Under the pieces are notes generated by a model. That model did not search any database and was not told where the DNA came from. It worked only from the letters and a program-made list of their open reading frames with translations. A DNA stretch of 64,000 bases from Parcubacteria group bacterium LiPW_30 (GTDB taxonomy: Bacteria > Patescibacteriota > Minisyncoccia > Phycocordibacterales > VMEP01): the NCBI GenBank assembly GCA_007375595.1, contig VMEP01000001.1:89274-153273 (forward strand), written 5' to 3'. A program made the translations under genes and the position numbers. Every line of letters starts with the position of its first letter. Position 1 is the first letter of the stretch. Shown here in pieces: positions 44,117-63,800 of the stretch.

Positions 44117-47100
44117 CTAAATAATCAGTTTTAAAACAAAAGATATGTCATCAAAAGAAACTTCTTCTCCGATAACAACATCAGAAAAGTATATCCCTTT
44201 AATACTCACGGCTTGAGAAATTTCTGCCTGCCATTTTTCTACAAAACTTTTTCCGTTCTCGTTTGTTGAAATACTAAGTGAGACAATATCTTTAGGGTTT
44301 AATTTTTCTTTCTTTCTTAAGTCTTGGACTGCGCGAATGAATTCACGGACCTGTCCTTCTTCTTTTAACTCGGGGGTTATTGTGACATCAAACAACACAG
44401 ACCCTTTTTCAAGAGAAGCGTTGTGTGTAATTTTTTTCACGTTTACTTCCTCCTTCACCAGCTCTTCAAAAAATTCACCATCTTGCTCGGATACTTCTAA
44501 CAAAGAGAGTGGTTGGCGAACCTTAATCCCGTGAACAGCGCGCGCGGCAAGGGCTTGTTCAACTATTCTTCTAGTATTCAACATTTCCCCAATTAAATCT
44601 TTGTTTGACCTATTTATCTTCGGCCATTTCTCAAGATGAACACTTTCTTTATCTTTTTCAGTTTTAATTTTTTGATACAAATCTTCCGCAACAAAAGGCA
44701 TGAATGGCGCAAGAATCTTAGAGAGTTCTTTCAAAACAAATAATGTTGTTTCAAGTCCTGCTTTTTTATCTTCTACATTTTCGTCCCTAAACCATCCTTC
44801 GGATGGTCGGGCGTTCAAACCATTTGAGTTTGAATTAGCCTTAAAACGTTCTCGCGAACGGCGAATGTACCAAGTCGATAAATCTTCAATAAAATCCCCG
44901 ATTGGTCTTGTTGCCTTATCAATCTCATATTTATCCATACCATCCGACACTGCTTCCTTAAGTTCGTTTAATCTCGCGATAATCCACTTATCCAAAACAT
45001 TTTTACTTTCATCTTTAGCTTCTACTTTTTCAGCATACAGCGCGTAAAAAGAATAAACATTCTCGAGGCGCACAACAATTTTTCTGTATACATCAGAAAC
45101 CGAAGCTTCAGACAAACTCAAATCCTCGGCCCGCATAATTGGAGACGAGAGTAAATAATATCGAAGTGAATCTGCTCCGTATTTTTCAATAACCTTAATT
45201 GGATCAGGGTAATTCTTTAAGCGCTTTGATATTTTTTTGCCGTCTTCGGCCATCACCATCCCGTTAACAATAACGTTTTTATATGGAGCCTTCCCAAAAA
45301 GAGCCGTGCTCAAAATCAAAAGCGTATAAAACCAACCACGCGTTTGATCTAACCCTTCCGCGATAAAATCTGCAGGGAAATTATTTTTAAATTCTTTTTC
45401 GTTCTCAAAAGGATAGTGGAATTGCGCAAATGGCATTGACCCTGATTCAAACCAACAATCAAACACTTCCAAAACACGTGTCCTTTCTCCCCCGCATTCA
45501 CAATTTAGTTTTACATCATCAATATATGGACGATGAAAATCAAGGTTTCCGTCTTTATTGCGAGGGATTGATTCGAAAATCATTTTTTCAAACTCCGCAT
45601 TACTTAAGAAATCGTCCCCTCTCTCTTTTTTCATCTTTACTGCACTTTCCACTGAAAGCCCTAATGCCATAGTAAAAAGCAACCACGCCGTGTATTCATG
45701 TGTAACAATAAGAACATTTTTCCCTTTATGCTCTTTTTCAATATTTGAAACAGCTTCAAAAACCCTTTTCTTTAAGTCAGCTAAATTCTCCCCGTTTGGA
45801 GCCCTCTTTGTAAATTTTTCTTCTAAAGAAGAGAAGTAGCCGTGATATTCCTCGTTGGTCTTTCCATTAAAATCACCAACATTTATTTCAGCCAGTCGTG
45901 GATCAAAGATAACACCAGAATTTTGTAGACCAAGTTCTTCGGCAAGAATAGACGCTGTTTGTCTTGTGCGCATAAGTGGCGAGGAAACAATGAGGTCAAT
46001 TTTTTCTTTTTTTAATTTCTGCGCGCTTTCCTTAACTTGCTCTCTCCCTTTTTCAGTTAGGTTGTCTATGTCTGTCTCTTTTGTTTTTGGAGTTCTTGTT
46101 ACATTACTTTCTGCTTGCCCATGTCTTATTACAAAATAATTATTAGAAGACGCTTTTGCCAATTTTTTAATATCAGAAAGCGAACCAACAACAAACGGTT
46201 TTTCGCATTTATTACATTTCCAAACAGGAATCGGCGCTCCCCAAAAACGAGCTCGAGAAACTGCCCAGTCGCGAGCGCCTTCAAGCCACTTACCAAAACG
46301 GTTAGTACCGATTGATTCTGGAACCCAATGTATCTTTTTATTTTCTTCAACGAGTTTATCTCTAAATTTACTAACCTCAACAAACCAAGAACTTGAAGCA
46401 TAATTTAAAAGTGGCGTCTCACATCGCCAACAAAGCGGATATGAGTGAACTATCTTTTCTTTAGAGAAGAGTGTTCCTTTTTGCGCAAGATATTTAATTA
46501 TTTCTATATCCGCCGATTGAGTATCTCCTTTTTGTTTAACATATTTACCAGCGAAATCTCTTACCTCGGGTTTAAATTGTCCACTCATTGAAACGTGTTG
46601 AACAAAAGGGAGTTTTTCTTTGATTCCAAGTTCCATGTCTTCTGCACCAAAAGCCGGAGCTTCATGAGCAATACCAGTACCGCTTTCCGCCGTCACAAAA
46701 TCGGCATGATAAACCTTCCAGCCATTCTCGTGGTTCTTTATTGTTTTATCGTTTAGATAATAATCAAAAACCGGAATATAAGCTTTACCAACTAACTCAG
46801 AGCCTTTGAATTCTTTTTCTATTTTATATGGAGTATTAAAAACAAATTCTAATCTTTCTTTTGCAAGAACGTATTTTACTCCCTCCGTCTCAACCTTCAC
46901 ATAATCAATATCTTTATTCACCGCAATCGCGACGTTCCCTGGCAATGTCCAAGGAGTTGTTGTCCAAGCTAAAAGGTAAGTTCCTGGCTCATCGGCGAGT
47001 TCAAATTTTGCCGTCACCGAAATGTCAGTCAGATCGGTATAACCTTCCGCAACCTCTGATTGCGCAAGTGGTGTCTCGCAACGTGGACAAACATACATAA

Positions 47101-47623
47101 TTTTATGTCCTTCGTAGACAAGGCCTTTTTCATGAAGAGTTTTAAATGCCCACCAAATAGATTCTGTGTATGTCGCATCCATTGTTTTATAGGCATGCTC
47201 CATATCAACAAAACGTCCTAATCTTGGAACAACTTCTTTCCAATTTGAATCAAAACGAAGAACCGCTTTTTTTGCCGACTCGTTAAACTTATCAACTCCA
47301 TACTCTTCAATATCTTTTTTATGTCCAAGATTTAACTCTTGTTCAATTAAGTTTTCTATCGGAAGACCATGACAATCCCAACCCCACTGTCTGCGTACAA
47401 AATTACCACGCATCGTTTGGTAACGTGGAATAGCGTCTTTTATTGTCCCGGCTAAAATATGTCCGTAGTGTGGCTCCCCTGTTGCGAAGGGTGGTCCATC
47501 GTAAAATACGAATTTATCATCCGCTTTCTGTTCTAGCGTTTTCTCAAAAATTTTATTTTCTCTCCAGAATTTAAGTATCCTTTTTTCATTCAGAGAAACC
47601 TGTGTATCTTTTTGTTCTTCCAT
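44117..47623 (-). CDS. ileS: isoleucyl-tRNA synthetase carrying an inserted histidine-phosphatase (PGM/RHG-family) domain
   Basis: 1168 aa; HIGH (PHYGHILAG), KMSKS (KISKRLKN), CP1 editing region; ~195-aa insert (aa ~494-690) with RHG motif FVIRHGQAESN…SSPLMRTRQTA…IVTHEYT. Confidence 0.9.
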   Translation of the reverse strand: MEEQKDTQVSLNEKRILKFWRENKIFEKTLEQKADDKFVFYDGPPFATGEPHYGHILAGTIKDAIPRYQTMRGNFVRRQWGWDCHGLPIENLIEQELNLGHKKDIEEYGVDKFNESAKKAVLRFDSNWKEVVPRLGRFVDMEHAYKTMDATYTESIWWAFKTLHEKGLVYEGHKIMYVCPRCETPLAQSEVAEGYTDLTDISVTAKFELADEPGTYLLAWTTTPWTLPGNVAIAVNKDIDYVKVETEGVKYVLAKERLEFVFNTPYKIEKEFKGSELVGKAYIPVFDYYLNDKTIKNHENGWKVYHADFVTAESGTGIAHEAPAFGAEDMELGIKEKLPFVQHVSMSGQFKPEVRDFAGKYVKQKGDTQSADIEIIKYLAQKGTLFSKEKIVHSYPLCWRCETPLLNYASSSWFVEVSKFRDKLVEENKKIHWVPESIGTNRFGKWLEGARDWAVSRARFWGAPIPVWKCNKCEKPFVVGSLSDIKKLAKASSNNYFVIRHGQAESNVTRTPKTKETDIDNLTEKGREQVKESAQKLKKEKIDLIVSSPLMRTRQTASILAEELGLQNSGVIFDPRLAEINVGDFNGKTNEEYHGYFSSLEEKFTKRAPNGENLADLKKRVFEAVSNIEKEHKGKNVLIVTHEYTAWLLFTMALGLSVESAVKMKKERGDDFLSNAEFEKMIFESIPRNKDGNLDFHRPYIDDVKLNCECGGERTRVLEVFDCWFESGSMPFAQFHYPFENEKEFKNNFPADFIAEGLDQTRGWFYTLLILSTALFGKAPYKNVIVNGMVMAEDGKKISKRLKNYPDPIKVIEKYGADSLRYYLLSSPIMRAEDLSLSEASVSDVYRKIVVRLENVYSFYALYAEKVEAKDESKNVLDKWIIARLNELKEAVSDGMDKYEIDKATRPIGDFIEDLSTWYIRRSRERFKANSNSNGLNARPSEGWFRDENVEDKKAGLETTLFVLKELSKILAPFMPFVAEDLYQKIKTEKDKESVHLEKWPKINRSNKDLIGEMLNTRRIVEQALAARAVHGIKVRQPLSLLEVSEQDGEFFEELVKEEVNVKKITHNASLEKGSVLFDVTITPELKEEGQVREFIRAVQDLRKKEKLNPKDIVSLSISTNENGKSFVEKWQAEISQAVSIKGIYFSDVVIGEEVSFDDISFVLKLII

Positions 47624-49275: not shown

Positions 49276-49701
49276 TTACTTTCCAGAACTACCAAAACCC
49301 TTGCCGCCTCTGTCTGTTTCGCTCAATTCTGAGACTTCAACAAATTCTACTTGTTCAATTTTCTGAATTATCATCTGGGCGACCTTCTGCCCCTTTTCAA
49401 ACTTATATGCTCTGTTGCTTAAATTAACTATTCCAACTTTAACCTCTCCGCGATACCCAGCATCTATAACTCCGCCCAACGTTTTAATTCCATTTTTTAT
49501 AGCAATACCACTTTTATCCCAAATAAGTCCAGCGTATCCGTCTGGAATTTCAAGTGCAATTCCAGTTGGCACTTCTTTCCATTCACCCGAAGCAACCTCT
49601 ATTTCTTCTCGTGAAAGTAGATCAAAAGCCGCATCTCCTTTATATGCGTAAACTGGAACCGGTAAATTTTTATCTAATCTTTTTATTTTTATTTGCATCA
49701 A
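49276..49701 (-). CDS. dut: dUTP diphosphatase
   Basis: 141 aa; dUTPase motifs (…AAFDL…, …GLIWDKSGIAIKNGI…, …DRGGKGFGSSG). Confidence 0.85.
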   Translation of the reverse strand: MMQIKIKRLDKNLPVPVYAYKGDAAFDLLSREEIEVASGEWKEVPTGIALEIPDGYAGLIWDKSGIAIKNGIKTLGGVIDAGYRGEVKVGIVNLSNRAYKFEKGQKVAQMIIQKIEQVEFVEVSELSETDRGGKGFGSSGK

Positions 49702-49815
49702 GATATTCTATAACTAAGCACCTCGAACAAGAAATGCTAGATTGACAGCAACGTCCTAAAAAGATAGTTTTGTGGTAGTAAGCTCCTCGTTAAACAAACA
49801 ACCGAAAGGAACAAC

Positions 49816-50748
49816 GTGAAATATACCTCAGCTGAAAAACCGCCAGTTGTGGCCTACAAGCCATACCGAGACCGGAAGCCAGACTATCAATTCCGGGACC
49901 TTGCAACCAGCATCATGGAATACGGTGAAATTTCCCACCCACCACAAGGAGAAGAAGCAAAACGCTTGAGTGGAGTGCAGCTCCGCTATCAGATGGAAAA
50001 CGGATTTCCCCTCATGACTGAAAGAAATCTGACCCTTGCGCTTGGGGGGTCGAACGGTGAAATAATCGGAATGACCCACGGCGAACGCACCCTCAACGGC
50101 CTCATGAAATATGGGTGCCCGGAAGTATTCTGGAAAAATTGGGTTACCCCGGAAAAATGCGCCATTTTTGGACTCCCCCCAGGAGATCTTGGTGACGGTT
50201 CGTATGGCCCTCAGTTCGGGAAACCGAAATGCGAAGGTGGTGAATTCAGTCAAATCGAGGCAGCCCTTGCGCTTGCAAAGGCTTTCCCCGATACCAGAAC
50301 CATTCGGATAACAACCTGGCGCTTAGTGGAGCTGCTACTGAATGCCGATCCAAAAAAACGGCGGACGGTGGTTGCTCCGTGTCACGGTGATTTCACAGTC
50401 GTAATCAACCGGGAAAGAAAGACGCTTAAGATCATTCATCGACAGCGCTCTGCTGACCTTCTCGTCGGATGGACAGGCAACGTCACTCAATATGCCTGGA
50501 TGGGTATGGTGTTTGCACACCTCCTTGGTTACACAATGACCGAGCTTGTGCACTACATTGAAGACGCCCATATTTACAAGCGTCAATATGAATCTTTCCG
50601 CGAACTGTTCGCAAACCAAACCAAGCCGTTCCCGACGGTTACCATTGACGAAACTGTCACTGACTACTTCAGTTTTCGTCGCGAACATCTCTTCTTGGGC
50701 AATGACTACGATTGCGGGCCGAAAATGATCATTCCAACCCCCATCTAA
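49816..50748 (+). CDS. thyA: thymidylate synthase family enzyme (ThyA-like, divergent; dUMP-directed by active-site Asn)
   Basis: 310 aa; ThyA core: …ENGFPLMTER…, catalytic VAPCHGDF, …HRQRSADLLVGWTGNVTQYAWM…, …EDAHIYKRQ…; GC ~50%. Confidence 0.7.
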   Translation: MKYTSAEKPPVVAYKPYRDRKPDYQFRDLATSIMEYGEISHPPQGEEAKRLSGVQLRYQMENGFPLMTERNLTLALGGSNGEIIGMTHGERTLNGLMKYGCPEVFWKNWVTPEKCAIFGLPPGDLGDGSYGPQFGKPKCEGGEFSQIEAALALAKAFPDTRTIRITTWRLVELLLNADPKKRRTVVAPCHGDFTVVINRERKTLKIIHRQRSADLLVGWTGNVTQYAWMGMVFAHLLGYTMTELVHYIEDAHIYKRQYESFRELFANQTKPFPTVTIDETVTDYFSFRREHLFLGNDYDCGPKMIIPTPI

Positions 50749-50856
50749 ACGCTTTTCCCTTTCACAAAAATCGCCATTCGTGGCGATTTTATTTTTTGAC
50801 AAAAATTTTATCCCGACATATAAATAACACTAGTAAGAAACTAAGGAGACCTTTTT

Positions 50857-51327
50857 ATGAACAAACCACAAGTAAACATTGCACACGCCGTAACTGAAGA
50901 TTACCGCAAAACTCTAGAGCAAATTATCCGCGACGGAGTATGCCCTTTTTGCGTGGACTTCTGTCAGGGAAACAAGCCGAGGTATCACCCCAACCCAATC
51001 ATCATAGAAACAGATTGGTGGGCAGTAACTAAAAACATGCGACCATACCCTGGAAGCTCACTTCATTTACTTCTGGTGTACAAGAAGCATGTTCTCTATC
51101 CGTGGGAGATAGACCAGAAAGCTTGGGATGATTTGCGAAATGTTATGAAAAAACTCGCAACAGATTATTCCCTCACGCATGGGACTCTCTTCCAGCGCTT
51201 TGGCGATACCGAGTTCACGGGAGCAAGCGTGACCCACTTCCATGGTCAGCTCATCGTCGGTACATCAAGAAACGAAGGGACCGATCCATTGGTTGTCTAT
51301 TGTGGATACAAGGTTCCTGGAAAATGA
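50857..51327 (+). CDS. HIT-superfamily (GalT/Ap4A-phosphorylase branch-like) nucleotidyl transferase/hydrolase
   Basis: 156 aa; N-terminal Cys cluster CPFCVDFC and HxHGQ-type motif VTHFHGQLIV. Confidence 0.45.
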   Translation: MNKPQVNIAHAVTEDYRKTLEQIIRDGVCPFCVDFCQGNKPRYHPNPIIIETDWWAVTKNMRPYPGSSLHLLLVYKKHVLYPWEIDQKAWDDLRNVMKKLATDYSLTHGTLFQRFGDTEFTGASVTHFHGQLIVGTSRNEGTDPLVVYCGYKVPGK

Positions 51328-51338
51328 AAAGAAACCAA

Positions 51339-51370
51339 AAAGGCGATCTTTGCAGATCGCCTTTTTTTAT
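51339..51370 (+). terminator. rho-independent terminator for the thyA-HIT transcript
   Basis: AAAGGCGATCTTTGCAGATCGCCTTTTTTT. Confidence 0.65.
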
Positions 51371-51401
51371 TTTTATAAAAAACAAAGCCCCCGTAGGGGG
51401 C

Positions 51402-52253
51402 TTAAAATGAAACACGGACAACTTTCACTTCGCGGTTTCGAAGAGCCTCACGGCCATTCAAATTAGCGTAGCCGTCTTTAAAGTACACGCTCCGAACACG
51501 TGCCTCTGCAAGCATTTGCGCGCAAGAAACACACGGAAAGACTGTTTGGTAGATATCAGCCCCACGAAGCGAGATGTTTTTTCGCGACGCCGCTGCCGTG
51601 AGTAACGCTCTTTCCGCATGCATGAAAAGAGAACACTCAATCATCTCCCCTGCCTGAAAATTACTCCGGGGATCCCCATTCGCATACTGCTGTTGAGGCG
51701 GTACGCTTTCGTTGAATGCGGCCAAACGCTTCCCATCGCGAGTAACCGCAATGGCTCCAATCTGACGCCAAAAATCAGAACTCCTTTTACTGAGTTCGTC
51801 TGCTTGGCGCAAAAATTTCCGAGCAGCCTCTGACGATGTCACGATAATGTCTTCGTCTGGAGGAAGCTTGGAAAGCGCAGCCATTCCATCCCAACGGAGG
51901 AAGAACGGGATGAAAGTAATGCGTTTGCGGCCGAAAAATCTTTTAGCCACGTAACGCGAAACATCTTCGTCCGGAAGAATAAGTCGCACATCCTTCCGCA
52001 TCGCAAGAGACCTAAGACCGACCGTGTTTACAACTGAAACTAAGTCGAGTGCCGGCGATACCAATCCTTTGGTTTGATTCAACATCATCGCCAAAAGCTT
52101 GGGTTCAACAGCTCTCATGTCACGGGCTATCCCGACAATTGCGTGTGACACACTCGGGTGAAGTAAGTGAAGTTCTTGTGCCCCACTTTCTTCAATAAAA
52201 CGCCGATACCCTTCGTGAAAAACAGGGATGTATGCAACCGCAACGGTCCTCAT
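51402..52253 (-). CDS. fusion of an N-terminal domain of unknown function with a C-terminal cytidine/deoxycytidylate deaminase zinc-binding domain
   Basis: 283 aa; C-terminal CMP/dCMP deaminase motifs …CSLFMHAERALL… and …PCVSCAQML…; start overlaps upstream gene by ATGA. Confidence 0.6.
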   Translation of the reverse strand: MRTVAVAYIPVFHEGYRRFIEESGAQELHLLHPSVSHAIVGIARDMRAVEPKLLAMMLNQTKGLVSPALDLVSVVNTVGLRSLAMRKDVRLILPDEDVSRYVAKRFFGRKRITFIPFFLRWDGMAALSKLPPDEDIIVTSSEAARKFLRQADELSKRSSDFWRQIGAIAVTRDGKRLAAFNESVPPQQQYANGDPRSNFQAGEMIECSLFMHAERALLTAAASRKNISLRGADIYQTVFPCVSCAQMLAEARVRSVYFKDGYANLNGREALRNREVKVVRVSF

Positions 52254-52945
52254 GATTTCGTGCCACTTATTCGAGACAGGAAACCTTCAATGACGCGATG
52301 AAGCTCCTCTGCAAGCTGTGACGCCCCAGTCAGAATCAAGGCGGAAAGCCGTGCCGTGGTCGAGTCATCAGACTGAGGAACCAACCACTCCAGCCGGCCA
52401 CAATGCTTCATCAGGTGGTCGATATGACTCTGATCCACATCTTTGGTCCCCTTCGACATAATGAGGACATCGGGGTGAATTTTTTCGACAAGCTCTTCCA
52501 GTCGTGCCCCCACATCGCGCACAGTCACGAGGTCAACGTGCCTGGTATGCAATAGCATCTCGACACGATCACCAAATGCATCAAACGGCCGAGCAGGTTC
52601 TCCTGGTTTTTGCTTTCGCTGCCGTGTCAATTCGTCAGAGTCGACACCAACCACGAGAAAGTCTCCCGCCGCTTTCGCTTTTTCAAGGTAACGAAAATGA
52701 CCCTTATGCGCCATATCGTATACACCCTGAGTCAGAACAACGACAAACCCTCCTTCCTGCAAATGCCTGACCACGCGAACCAACTCCTCGTGGTCTTGCA
52801 CAAATCGTGTTTCCTGATTCCTTTGGCGGAAATCAAAAAGATTCTTGACGATTCGGGCAAACCTTGTTTTCGGTGATACTTCCATACAAACAGAACCTTC
52901 TAATGGCGTGTTCATTCTAGACTCCTCGGTAAATGGAAAGGTCAA
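52250..52945 (-). CDS. cytidylyltransferase-like nucleotidyltransferase (HldE domain II / TagD family, HxGH motif)
   Basis: 231 aa; …VVVLTQGVYDMAHKGHFRYLEKAKAAGDFLVVGVDSDELTRQRK… aligns to heptose-1-P adenylyltransferase / G3P cytidylyltransferase core. Confidence 0.6.
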   Translation of the reverse strand: MTFPFTEESRMNTPLEGSVCMEVSPKTRFARIVKNLFDFRQRNQETRFVQDHEELVRVVRHLQEGGFVVVLTQGVYDMAHKGHFRYLEKAKAAGDFLVVGVDSDELTRQRKQKPGEPARPFDAFGDRVEMLLHTRHVDLVTVRDVGARLEELVEKIHPDVLIMSKGTKDVDQSHIDHLMKHCGRLEWLVPQSDDSTTARLSALILTGASQLAEELHRVIEGFLSRISGTKS

Positions 52946-53079
52946 ACTGCGTTAATTTATATTCCTTGAGATGCCAAAAGTAAACCCCCTACAAAAAACT
53001 TACTTTACTCCACCCTATTTTCTTTGTTAGTCTAAGCAAAGAAAGTCCTTCCCATATACACAAGAAATGGAGCGTCGAA

Positions 53080-53580
53080 ATGTCAAAACCACAACTTGCC
53101 GTAATTGCAGCAATCGAGGAAAAAACCAGAGCGATGGGTATCAACAACAAACTCCTCTGGAGGATCAGTGGCGACCTTCCAAGGTTCAAGGCGCTAACCG
53201 AAGGTCAGGTAATTATCATGGGGAAAAACACCTACCTCTCCATAGGTAGACCACTCCCAAATCGCCACAATATTGTCGTCAGTAAAACACTCGGGATGGT
53301 TTCGGGGATCGCTGTTGCCCACTACTTTGAGAACGCTATCGCATTTGCGAAAACTCTCAACTCCGAAAAGATATTTTTTATCGGAGGAGGAGAAATTTTC
53401 CGTGCGGCACTCCCGATCGCCGACATGCTTTATCTAACGCTCGTTCGCGACAACGAAGTAAAAGCTGATGCGTTTTTTCCTACCTACGAGAAATCATTCG
53501 TACAGGTCCCTGGTTCAGAAGAATCTCATCTCGACCATAGCCCGCCATTTCGTTATGTAGACTTTGTTCCCCGAAGATAA
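53080..53580 (+). CDS. folA: dihydrofolate reductase
   Basis: 166 aa; …LAVIAAIEEKTRAMGINNKLLWRISGDLPRFKALTEGQVIIMGKNTY… DHFR signature. Confidence 0.85.
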   Translation: MSKPQLAVIAAIEEKTRAMGINNKLLWRISGDLPRFKALTEGQVIIMGKNTYLSIGRPLPNRHNIVVSKTLGMVSGIAVAHYFENAIAFAKTLNSEKIFFIGGGEIFRAALPIADMLYLTLVRDNEVKADAFFPTYEKSFVQVPGSEESHLDHSPPFRYVDFVPRR

Positions 53581-53608
53581 CTTCGCGCTTCGTTTGCTCT
53601 AAACATCA

Positions 53609-53643
53609 AAAAAACCGATCACAGTTGTGATCGGTTTTTTCTA
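53609..53643. terminator. bidirectional terminator between folA and rplK (AAAACCGATCACAGTTGTGATCGGTTTT)
   Basis: Perfect palindromic stem with A/T flanks between convergent genes. Confidence 0.7.
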
Positions 53644-53658
53644 TTAAAGATTTATTTT

Positions 53659-54081
53659 CTATTTAACCTCAATTCCGGCAGAACGAGCGGAACCTTCGAT
53701 TATTTTCATTGCTGCTTCAATATCGTTTGCAGTTAAATCTGGCATTTTCTTTTCAGCAATTTCTTGTAACTGCTGTTTTGTTATTTTTCCAGCTTTTGTA
53801 ACTTTCTGTTTAGCAGCTCCTTTCTCAATACCAGCTGCTTTCAAGATAAGTCCTGTTACTGGAGGTGTCTTAACAACGAAATCAAATGTTCGATCTTCGT
53901 AAACGCGGACAACAACTGAAACTTTTTCTCCAACATTCTCTTTTGTTGCTTCATTAAATTTATTAACGAAATCTCCAATGTTCACTCCGGCCTGACCCAA
54001 GGCAGGTCCTAGTGGTGGCGCAGGTGTTGCTTTACCGGCCGCAATTTGTACTTTTATTTTTTTTGTTATTTTTTTTGCCAT
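53659..54081 (-). CDS. rplK: 50S ribosomal protein L11
   Basis: 140 aa; …[21 protein letters not shown]… L11 signature. Confidence 0.95.
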
Positions 54082-54085
54082 ATAT

Positions 54086-54631
54086 TTATATTTTCTTTAC
54101 CTGAAGGAAATCAAGCTCAACTGGTGTCTCGCGACCGAACATCGAAACCAAAACCTTAACCTTGCCACGTTCGCTATCAACCTCAGAAACCCTCCCTTCA
54201 AGCTCCTTAAATGGGCCGTCGGTGATGGTGACCATTTCACCCTGTGTTAGGGCAATTGTATGCTTCACCGTATCAGATTTCATGCGAGCAAACAACCCAT
54301 CAACTTCTTTTTGATCTAGTGGAACTGGAGTTGTCCCTGCGCCAACGAAACCAGTCACACGTGGAGTGTTGCGAACAACATACCAAGAATCGTCTGTAAC
54401 AACCATATCAACGAGAACATATCCTGGGTAGATTTTCTCTTCGGTCTCAACACGCTTCCCTCCCTTTATCTTTATCTTCTTTTCAACTGGAACAATAATA
54501 TTAAAAATTTTATCTTCCATACCAAGAGACTCCACGCGCTGTTTTAGATTTCGCATAACGGCGTTTTCATATCCTGCATACGTGTGTATTGCGTACCAGT
54601 TTCTATCTAGATTTATTTCTTGCTTAGCCAT
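54086..54631 (-). CDS. nusG: transcription termination/antitermination factor NusG
   Basis: 181 aa; NGN domain ([14 protein letters not shown]) and C-terminal KOW. Confidence 0.9.
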
Positions 54632-54632
54632 G

Positions 54633-54815
54633 TTATTGCAAAATGAAAGTCTTTATCAAAAAAGTAAAACCGAAGTCAAAAGCACCAAGCCCATAGCCGA
54701 CGATTATCGAAATCAAAATAACAACGATGGTAAAAGCAATAGTCTGGGCTTTTGATGGCCAGCTAACATGCTTCATTTCGCCTTGTGTTTCCCTTAAATA
54801 TTCAGTTAATTTCAT
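54633..54815 (-). CDS. secE: preprotein translocase subunit SecE (60 aa; the track's 140-aa ORF is over-extended into the upstream repeat element)
   Basis: [22 protein letters not shown]…single TM…; canonical secE-nusG adjacency. Confidence 0.8.
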
Positions 54816-54916
54816 ACTTTTAGTTAAAAACGCCCCCTCGGGCATTTGCACCACTCTACCTCTTATTCGAAAAAAGGTCAACCTGGCTTTTTTCCCTTTC
54901 AACCTAAGAGCACGGA

Positions 54917-54995
54917 TAATTTTCTGCTGAAAATTTCCTCGAGCTCGCGTCGCCACGCTCGCTAGTCTCTTAAGCTGAAAGGTTGAGTGGTATGT
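54917..54995. repeat. copy of the GGATAATTTTCTGCTGAAAATTTCC element plus CTCGCGTCGCCACGCT box, between a terminator and secE
   Basis: 26-nt identity to copies at 5510-5535/5698-5723/63637-63662; the CGCGTCGCCACGCT box recurs at 15486-15500. Confidence 0.6.
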
Positions 54996-55072
54996 TTCAA
55001 AAAGAAAAGAAACCCAAAAGACAAAAAACAGGGGTGACCCCTGTTTTTTTATCACACCTATTTTCGTCCTTA

Positions 55073-63635: not shown

Positions 63636-63800
63636 CCACAGATAATTTTCTGCTGAAAATTTCCGCGGTCGTGATTCGACACACAAACAGGGGGATTCGG
63701 TCAAGAACATTTTTACTCGTCGTCACTCATAAAAATTTCTCGACCCTGCTCGTTCGACCATTTCTGCTGAAATGGTACCCGAACTCGCCTTCGAGTCTCC
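63634..63800. repeat. copy of the GATAATTTTCTGCTGAAAATTTCCGCGGTC element followed by a second CCATTTC-TGCT-GAAATGG hairpin
   Basis: Same core as the other copies; the second hairpin keeps the TGCT loop with a different complementary stem. Confidence 0.6.

Follow-up and report, generated by a model that had tools for sequence, protein, structure and literature searches.

We propose that a 64-kb stretch of the genome of Parcubacteria group bacterium LiPW_30 very likely comes from one of the Parcubacteria that lack ribosomal protein uL1 (OD1-L1, class Paceibacteria/Minisyncoccia), and that the classical cluster of which the L1 gene, rplA, is part is laid out in it as two transcription units, secE-nusG-rplK and rplJ-rplL. 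The stretch, here called the window, spans 64,000 nucleotides (positions 89,274 to 153,273) of the 680,130-bp contig VMEP01000001.1; it is the sequence that was searched, and coordinates below count from its first nucleotide. Pfam matches identify the five genes of the two units as follows.

54633-54845, minus strand: secE, 70 amino acids with the ATG at 54845 taken as start (SecE over the last 55 amino acids, 7e-15)
54086-54631, minus strand: nusG (NusG, 9e-28, plus KOW), starting 1 nt past the secE stop
53659-54081, minus strand: rplK, encoding L11 (L11_N, 3e-25; L11, 3e-25), the last gene of the secE-nusG-rplK unit
6301-6789, minus strand: rplJ, encoding L10 (L10, 9e-22)
5858-6271, minus strand: rplL, encoding L7/L12 (L12 and L12_N)

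The genes rplK and rplJ, both on the minus strand, are separated by 46.9 kb, and the window does not have the canonical contiguous order rplK-rplA-rplJ-rplL-rpoB. A preliminary description of this DNA, made from its letters, had placed rplJ-rplL at 5.8 to 6.8 kb, about 47 kb away from secE-nusG-rplK, and the Pfam matches bear out both the split order and the positions. In the case of secE, the 140-amino-acid open reading frame (54633-55055) is an over-extension, a 70-amino-acid product is called on the sister contigs, and translation probably starts at the corresponding ATG, that at 54845.

An L1 profile constructed from the Escherichia coli protein (locus L011) and three L1 proteins of the candidate phyla radiation (CPR) was searched without filters against all stop-to-stop segments of at least 20 amino acids in the six frames. 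It recovered neither an L1 gene nor a recognizable pseudogene from the window (best E value, 7.7), and there were zero matches in the roughly 1.5 Mb of sequence gathered for the L1-less clade described below. When an L1 profile was run against a protein database, the matches listed (120 of at least 8,000) were all from Uhrbacteria or Gammaproteobacteria and say nothing about LiPW_30.

The relatives of the window were gathered through L11, with one genome per species, yielding 80 loci that reach as far as 10 kb to either side; the best L11 match in this collection is 84% identical. In 77 of the 80 nearest species, secE-nusG-rplK is found without L1, L10, or L12 within 10 kb, and rplA directly follows rplK only in the loci L081 (labeled Uhrbacteria), L082 (labeled Falkowbacteria), and L085. 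In a neighbor-joining tree of NusG plus L11 rooted on E. coli, these three rplA-bearing taxa are monophyletic and sister to a clade of 76 taxa without rplA after rplK, inside which the window falls; its nearest relatives are labeled Paceibacterota, Nomurabacteria, Yonathbacteria, Taylorbacteria, and Minisyncoccia. The preliminary description had assigned this DNA to the L1-less lineage of Parcubacteria and named phylogenetic placement as a check; the placement, run with the two proteins, nests the window in the L1-less clade, and this nesting, together with the same arrangement in 76 species, upholds the fit to that lineage. The parcubacterial origin holds as well, the L11, NusG, L10, L7/L12, and SIMPL proteins of the window being identical to GenBank entries of LiPW_30, which NCBI places in the Parcubacteria group without further classification. 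For the other unit, a metagenome scan with L10 gave 55 rplJ loci. All 41 of those with an L10 identity of at least 42% have rplJ-rplL without L1 or L11 upstream, and at L10 identities of 37% or less, the loci L133, L136, L140, L141, L143, and L146 have rplA ahead of rplJ-rplL and also nusG-rplK where the upstream DNA allows.

A lineage with these properties is already on record. OD1-L1, a group of Brown et al. 2015 as relayed in PMC5220378, is so named because rpL1 is lacking in all of its members (PMC5220378). The loss of uL1 in a subgroup of Parcubacteria has been upheld on complete genomes, and the lineages without an anti-Shine-Dalgarno motif overlap that subgroup (PMC9297842). Further, the ABY1 lineage has been reported to have lost helix 78 (H78) of the 23S rRNA while keeping der and uL1, whereas Paceibacteria keep H78 and are devoid of uL1 and der (bioRxiv 10.1101/2024.11.29.625318). 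With these uL1-lacking Parcubacteria, the window has in common its origin, the lack of rplA beside either rplK or rplJ, the retained H78 and L1 stalk, the lack of Shine-Dalgarno use, and an arrangement that recurs across the clade, and there is no substantive difference between them. Its gene arrangement is the usual one of a known L1-less group whose loss of uL1 has been published since 2015. The literature on uL1-less Parcubacteria cited here does not describe the layout in two units, the place of the operator that was lost, or the L10 leader that was kept.

The L1-binding site in mRNA is a short, bulged stem, the bulge comprising a G-A pair together with an unpaired A. This site is found upstream of rplK in some phyla, as in the leader of the E. 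coli operon, and upstream of rplA in others, the latter position being reported in Actinobacteria, Cyanobacteria, and Chloroflexi (PMC3616713). Rfam lacks a model of it, even the E. coli leader used as a control being unmatched, and a hand-written descriptor (NGG-GA-G-stem-loop-stem-linker-CCN') was used, which found the E. coli leader, the sites of L081 and L085, and the 23S rRNA site of the window itself as positive controls. It gives four hits in the window, namely, the 23S site and three in coding sequence, against 4.2 ± 2.3 in shuffled sequences, with nothing found near rplK or rplJ. Among the L1-less loci, it has no hit in any nusG-rplK spacer and one chance-type hit only (L052) in the 400 nt downstream of rplK. 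The earlier statement that the window has no L1-binding leader is thus borne out, in that the descriptor finds no mRNA mimic of the L1 site, and the loss of L1 autoregulation that it had read into the lineage is supported at the level of the clade by the tree, the synteny, the literature, and the missing mimic.

The same description had gone further in holding that such a leader normally precedes rplK and in taking the 4-bp nusG-rplK junction as a sign of its loss. The junction itself is as described (TAA-ATAT-ATG), but the rule is that of E. coli: in the nearest L1-bearing relatives, L081 and L085, the L1 site lies immediately ahead of rplA. Because the operator precedes rplA in these relatives, the short junction is not evidence of a lost leader, and a single deletion would have removed an operator in that position along with rplA. 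The spacer of the window is the shortest in the 76-member L1-less clade, in which it has a median of 52 nt and a range of 4 to 970 nt. At this very junction, sister strains whose L11 is identical have an insertion of 98 nt (L005:797-898 and the same site in L006, L007, L009, and L010); this is AT rich and includes a CCCGTT...AACGGG hairpin, and neither an L1-site motif nor an obvious promoter is seen in it. In comparison with the E. coli L11 operon (rplKA), the order secE-nusG-rplK is common to both, whereas the window is without rplA and the GGGAG-bulge stem and has a spacer of 4 nt as opposed to 158 nt.

The signals that would delimit the secE-nusG-rplK unit are as follows.

55049-55023: upstream terminator from the consensus scan, closing a SIMPL-family gene and isolating the secE unit
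54853-54881, minus strand: sigma-70-like promoter, TTGACC-17-TAGAGT, a 9/12 consensus match that is not significant alone
54082-54085, minus strand: the 4-nt nusG-rplK spacer ATAT, between the nusG stop TAA and the rplK ATG
53608-53641, either strand: bidirectional intrinsic terminator, A7-CCGATCAC-AACT-GTGATCGG-T7, between the convergent rplK and folA genes

We suggest that secE, nusG, and rplK are transcribed together from their own promoter and that, with junctions of 1 nt and 4 nt and no Shine-Dalgarno sequences, they are coupled. Since only 8 nt lie between the end of the promoter-like site's -10 hexamer and the ATG at 54845, the mRNA of the unit may be leaderless. The unit would end at the terminator that it shares with the convergent folA. 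This terminator follows the rplK stop at 17 nt and, on direct folding, has a free energy of -22.8 kcal/mol (z = -5.0; 0 of 200 shuffles as good); the earlier claim of a terminator directly after rplK is confirmed by this fold, and the hairpin was not listed by the consensus terminator scan. An identical L11 protein occurs on 17 contigs of independent samples (JGI, ENA, and Logan assemblies), and among the 10 of these that were listed, all 9 that reach beyond rplK have secE-nusG-rplK followed by convergent folA.

The predicted signals of the rplJ-rplL unit are as follows.

6934-6963, minus strand: promoter-like site, TTGCAA-18-TGgTAGTAT, an 8/12 match below the scan cutoff
6800-6940, minus strand: L10 leader, mimicking the site bound by L10(L12)4, with a core helix of ACAGAU (6913-6908) and GUCUGU (6879-6874) flanked by AGA...CGAGG
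6802-6833, minus strand: attenuator/terminator hairpin of the leader, CGACTCC-ACGG-GGAGTCG (6833-6816) plus a U-run, with a 7-bp GC-rich stem
5428-5470, minus strand: terminator-like hairpin, beyond a tandem duplication of 184 bp, at which the rplJ-rplL transcript would end

At the position of the putative promoter, relatives have TTGACN-17-TA(T/G)A(A/C)T. The intergenic region upstream of rplJ measures 206 nt, and the roughly 200-nt leader with a GACTCC...GGAGTC hairpin that had been described there is indeed present, the hairpin aligning to the terminator stem of the Rfam L10_leader model. The leader matches this model (RF00557) over its full length with 31.9 bits (E value, 0.006, in a 1.6-kb search), and the core of AGA, helix, and CGAG(G/A) is common to the leaders of 27 relatives. 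These were aligned with MAFFT, hand-trimmed, and subjected to pair counting, an ad hoc helix finder having given mostly spurious helices. Across 28 leaders, five core pairs are 96 to 100% paired, each with compensatory double changes; overall pairing is 82%, against 34 to 48% with slid partners, and covariation scores 0.485, compared with 0.25 for shuffles (0 of 500 reach it) and 0.08 to 0.16 for slid controls. The minimum-free-energy fold of the single sequence lacks the covarying helix and is given no weight here. Feedback by L10(L12)4 through transcription attenuation is reported in Bacillus subtilis, and by analogy this is most likely the function of the leader in the window. As in the L10 leader of RF00557, the L10(L12)4-interacting RNA of PMC3616713, the motif lies upstream of rplJ, has AGA...CGAGG around a covarying helix, and precedes a terminator hairpin that ends in a U-run. 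It differs in its variable apical hairpin and extra outer helix and in being common to relatives in which rplJ has no rplA or rplK ahead of it.

In most bacteria, rplL is followed by rpoBC. Here it is followed by a 203-amino-acid gene (4764-5375) and a gene for a 229-amino-acid MscS-like membrane protein, the two together at 3924-5375 on the minus strand, and then by the 23S rRNA gene, and the order of rplJ-rplL, the 203-amino-acid gene, and the MscS-like gene is kept in most relatives with enough downstream DNA (L093-L126). The 203-amino-acid protein, which was considered as a substitute for L1 and rejected, has no similarity to L1, and its matches, to winged-helix-type regulators at the N terminus, are weak and none reaches a curated cutoff. 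The tandem duplication (5500-5875; 2.0 copies of 184 bp, 97% identical) takes in the last 18 nt of rplL, and its unit folds as a series of hairpins (-69.8 kcal/mol; z = -6.1) without an Rfam match; because the first terminator-like hairpin after rplL comes only at 5428-5470, this structured duplication probably belongs to the rplJ-rplL transcript. On the upstream side, a 1,134-amino-acid open reading frame (10368-13772, minus strand) has no Pfam or NCBIfam match and is kept a few kilobases upstream of rplJ in several relatives, beside a TPR-containing protein of 303 amino acids.

Another element is seen near both units. The 22-nt palindromic motif GGAAATTTTCAGCAGAAAATTA has four exact copies in the window, on the minus strand, where none is expected by chance (5516-5537, 5700-5721, 54917-54938, and 63643-63664), and is also present in the loci L007, L014, L077, and L093. 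One copy is about 40 nt upstream of the -35 hexamer of secE and two are downstream of rplL, the flanks being unrelated. Such a motif might serve as a palindromic binding site for a protein or represent a small mobile hairpin.

The RNA to which L1 binds in the ribosome is intact in the window. The 23S rRNA gene reads as follows.

273-3552, minus strand: 23S rRNA gene, with a complete L1 stalk (H76-H78) at roughly 770-880

Helices H76 to H78 align fully to the Rfam large subunit (LSU) model, with every highly conserved consensus position matched, and this includes the L1-binding core at 792-846, where the descriptor has its hit. The gene, at 3,280 nt against the 2,925 positions of the model, has an insertion of about 261 nt (1037-1297) at LSU position ~1960, just 3' of helix 69, which matches neither a group I intron nor, convincingly, any other Rfam family, and another of about 50 nt (about 1344-1390) near LSU position 1894. 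Neither a 16S nor a 5S gene lies beside it, and the 16S gene is not in the window. As to translation signals, a Shine-Dalgarno-like 4-mer at -18 to -4 precedes 8 of 61 open reading frames (13%, against a background of 10.8%), which is no enrichment, and the 20 nt upstream of the starts are 73% A+T, against 60.5% overall. This lack of enrichment fits the reported overlap of the lineages devoid of the anti-Shine-Dalgarno motif with those devoid of uL1 (PMC9297842).

The comparison with L1-bearing relatives also suggests an order of events. The separation from rplJ-rplL had been tied to the loss of rplA, but the L1-bearing L081 and L082 likewise have no rplJ-rplL within 9 to 10 kb downstream. Hence, we propose that the split between rplK(A) and rplJL, which is clade-wide, is probably older than the loss of L1. 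Breaks at the same point are seen in Bradyrhizobium diazoefficiens and Actinomyces israelii, where genes lie between rplKA and rplJL (PMC12993453); the window differs from these in its separation of 47 kb, in the missing rplA, and in that rpoBC does not come after rplL.

Beyond the terminator, rplK is followed by a group of genes for nucleotide metabolism.

49276-53580, no strand assigned: nucleotide-metabolism neighborhood, GC richer, with synteny conserved in the clade
53080-53580, plus strand: folA (dihydrofolate reductase, by Pfam), convergent with rplK
52250-52945, minus strand: cytidylyltransferase-like gene
51402-52253, minus strand: dCMP-deaminase-like gene
50857-51327, plus strand: 156-amino-acid open reading frame with no Pfam match
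49816-50748, plus strand: thyA
49276-49701, minus strand: dut

Within 6 kb downstream of rplK, the 80 relatives have folA in 46 cases, thyA in 48, dut in 23, argS, the dCMP-deaminase-like gene, and the 156-amino-acid open reading frame in 20 each, and the cytidylyltransferase-like gene in 17; ileS is also among the genes found there. The isoleucyl-tRNA synthetase of the window (44117-47623, minus strand; 1,168 amino acids) has, according to the gene tables of sister contigs, a histidine-phosphatase match (PF00300) between its two tRNA-synt_1 matches.

The preliminary description had called this neighborhood an island of foreign composition, and one could suppose that a recent, horizontally acquired GC-rich island displaced or deleted rplA after rplK and parted rplJ-rplL from it. 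The higher GC content stands (0.48 at 50 to 53 kb, against about 0.38 in the surroundings), and the sister contig L001 is indeed without the cytidylyltransferase-like/deaminase-like pair and has a dCTP-deaminase-type gene (DCD) in its place. A foreign and recent insertion does not stand, given the recurrence of folA and thyA in 46 to 48 of the 80 species and of the other genes in 17 to 23. Moreover, because thyA and/or dut likewise lie 4 to 5 kb downstream in the L1-bearing L081 and L082, which have no rplJ-rplL, the neighborhood probably predates the loss of L1, only the cytidylyltransferase-like/deaminase-like subblock being strain variable; we consider the recent-island scenario highly improbable. 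Still less credence is due to the idea of an assembly or binning artefact, in which a chimeric join made where rplK ends hides rplA, a concern raised by the source being a metagenome-assembled genome. The same junction of rplK, terminator, and folA on independent contigs from different samples, with convergent folA in all nine informative contigs listed of the 17 with an identical L11, rules out an artefact of assembly, and the gene order is the same in 76 species.

Several points do weigh against the reading of an L1-less organism with a cluster in two units. The zero matches to L1 in 1.5 Mb count for little by themselves, as only about two genes would be expected there at random placement, and the L1 search covered 64 kb of a 680-kb contig, such that rplA might be present elsewhere in the genome. 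The tree was built from two proteins by neighbor joining; the promoters of both units are consensus matches only; the 31.9 bits of the L10 leader are below the Rfam gathering score of 44; and the order of split before loss hangs on L081 and L082, the two loci with rplA whose downstream DNA is long enough. The alternative closest to these points is that rplA has moved to a locus outside the window and that only the gene order has changed. It would accord with the fully canonical L1-binding site and H78 of the 23S rRNA and with the window amounting to 9% of the genome. However, no L1 is seen in the 1.5 Mb from at least 76 related species, beside either rplK or rplJ, surveys of complete and draft genomes report a clade without uL1 and with H78, and the window has no mimic of the L1 operator. 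We hence regard a relocated rplA as improbable and, on the evidence of the lineage, are highly confident that the gene is truly absent from the LiPW_30 genome. One might also ask whether L1 has been replaced on the conserved stalk RNA by a nonhomologous or unrecognizably divergent protein, as the H77/H78 L1-binding core is kept at all highly conserved consensus positions despite the absent gene. No candidate for such a protein was found, and because the stalk RNA also contacts tRNA directly, its conservation does not need a protein. A replacement in this organism is accordingly as doubtful as the recent island, and for Paceibacteria in general we see a slim chance that an unrecognized nonhomologous or extremely divergent protein occupies the stalk rather than the stalk working naked.

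Taking these findings together, we favor a L1-less parcubacterium in which the split between rplK(A) and rplJL probably came before the loss of L1 and the 23S rRNA has kept a canonical L1 stalk. The first unit would run from its own promoter through secE, nusG, and rplK to the shared terminator. The second, likewise with its own promoter, would have a leader of about 130 nt with the terminator hairpin ahead of rplJ and rplL and has probably kept the L10(L12)4 feedback by attenuation. The rplA gene would have gone along with its small L1-binding operator, with the consequence that L11 synthesis would no longer be under L1 feedback. The window carries little weight as a discovery, as the loss of uL1 and the retention of H78 have already been reported. 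It is of use to the study of reduced ribosomes and of ribosomal protein autoregulation in presenting a clade-wide split of rplK(A) from rplJL that is probably older than the loss of L1, an L1 operator ahead of rplA in the L1-bearing sister lineages, and an L10 leader, supported by covariation, that persists in CPR bacteria devoid of Shine-Dalgarno sequences.

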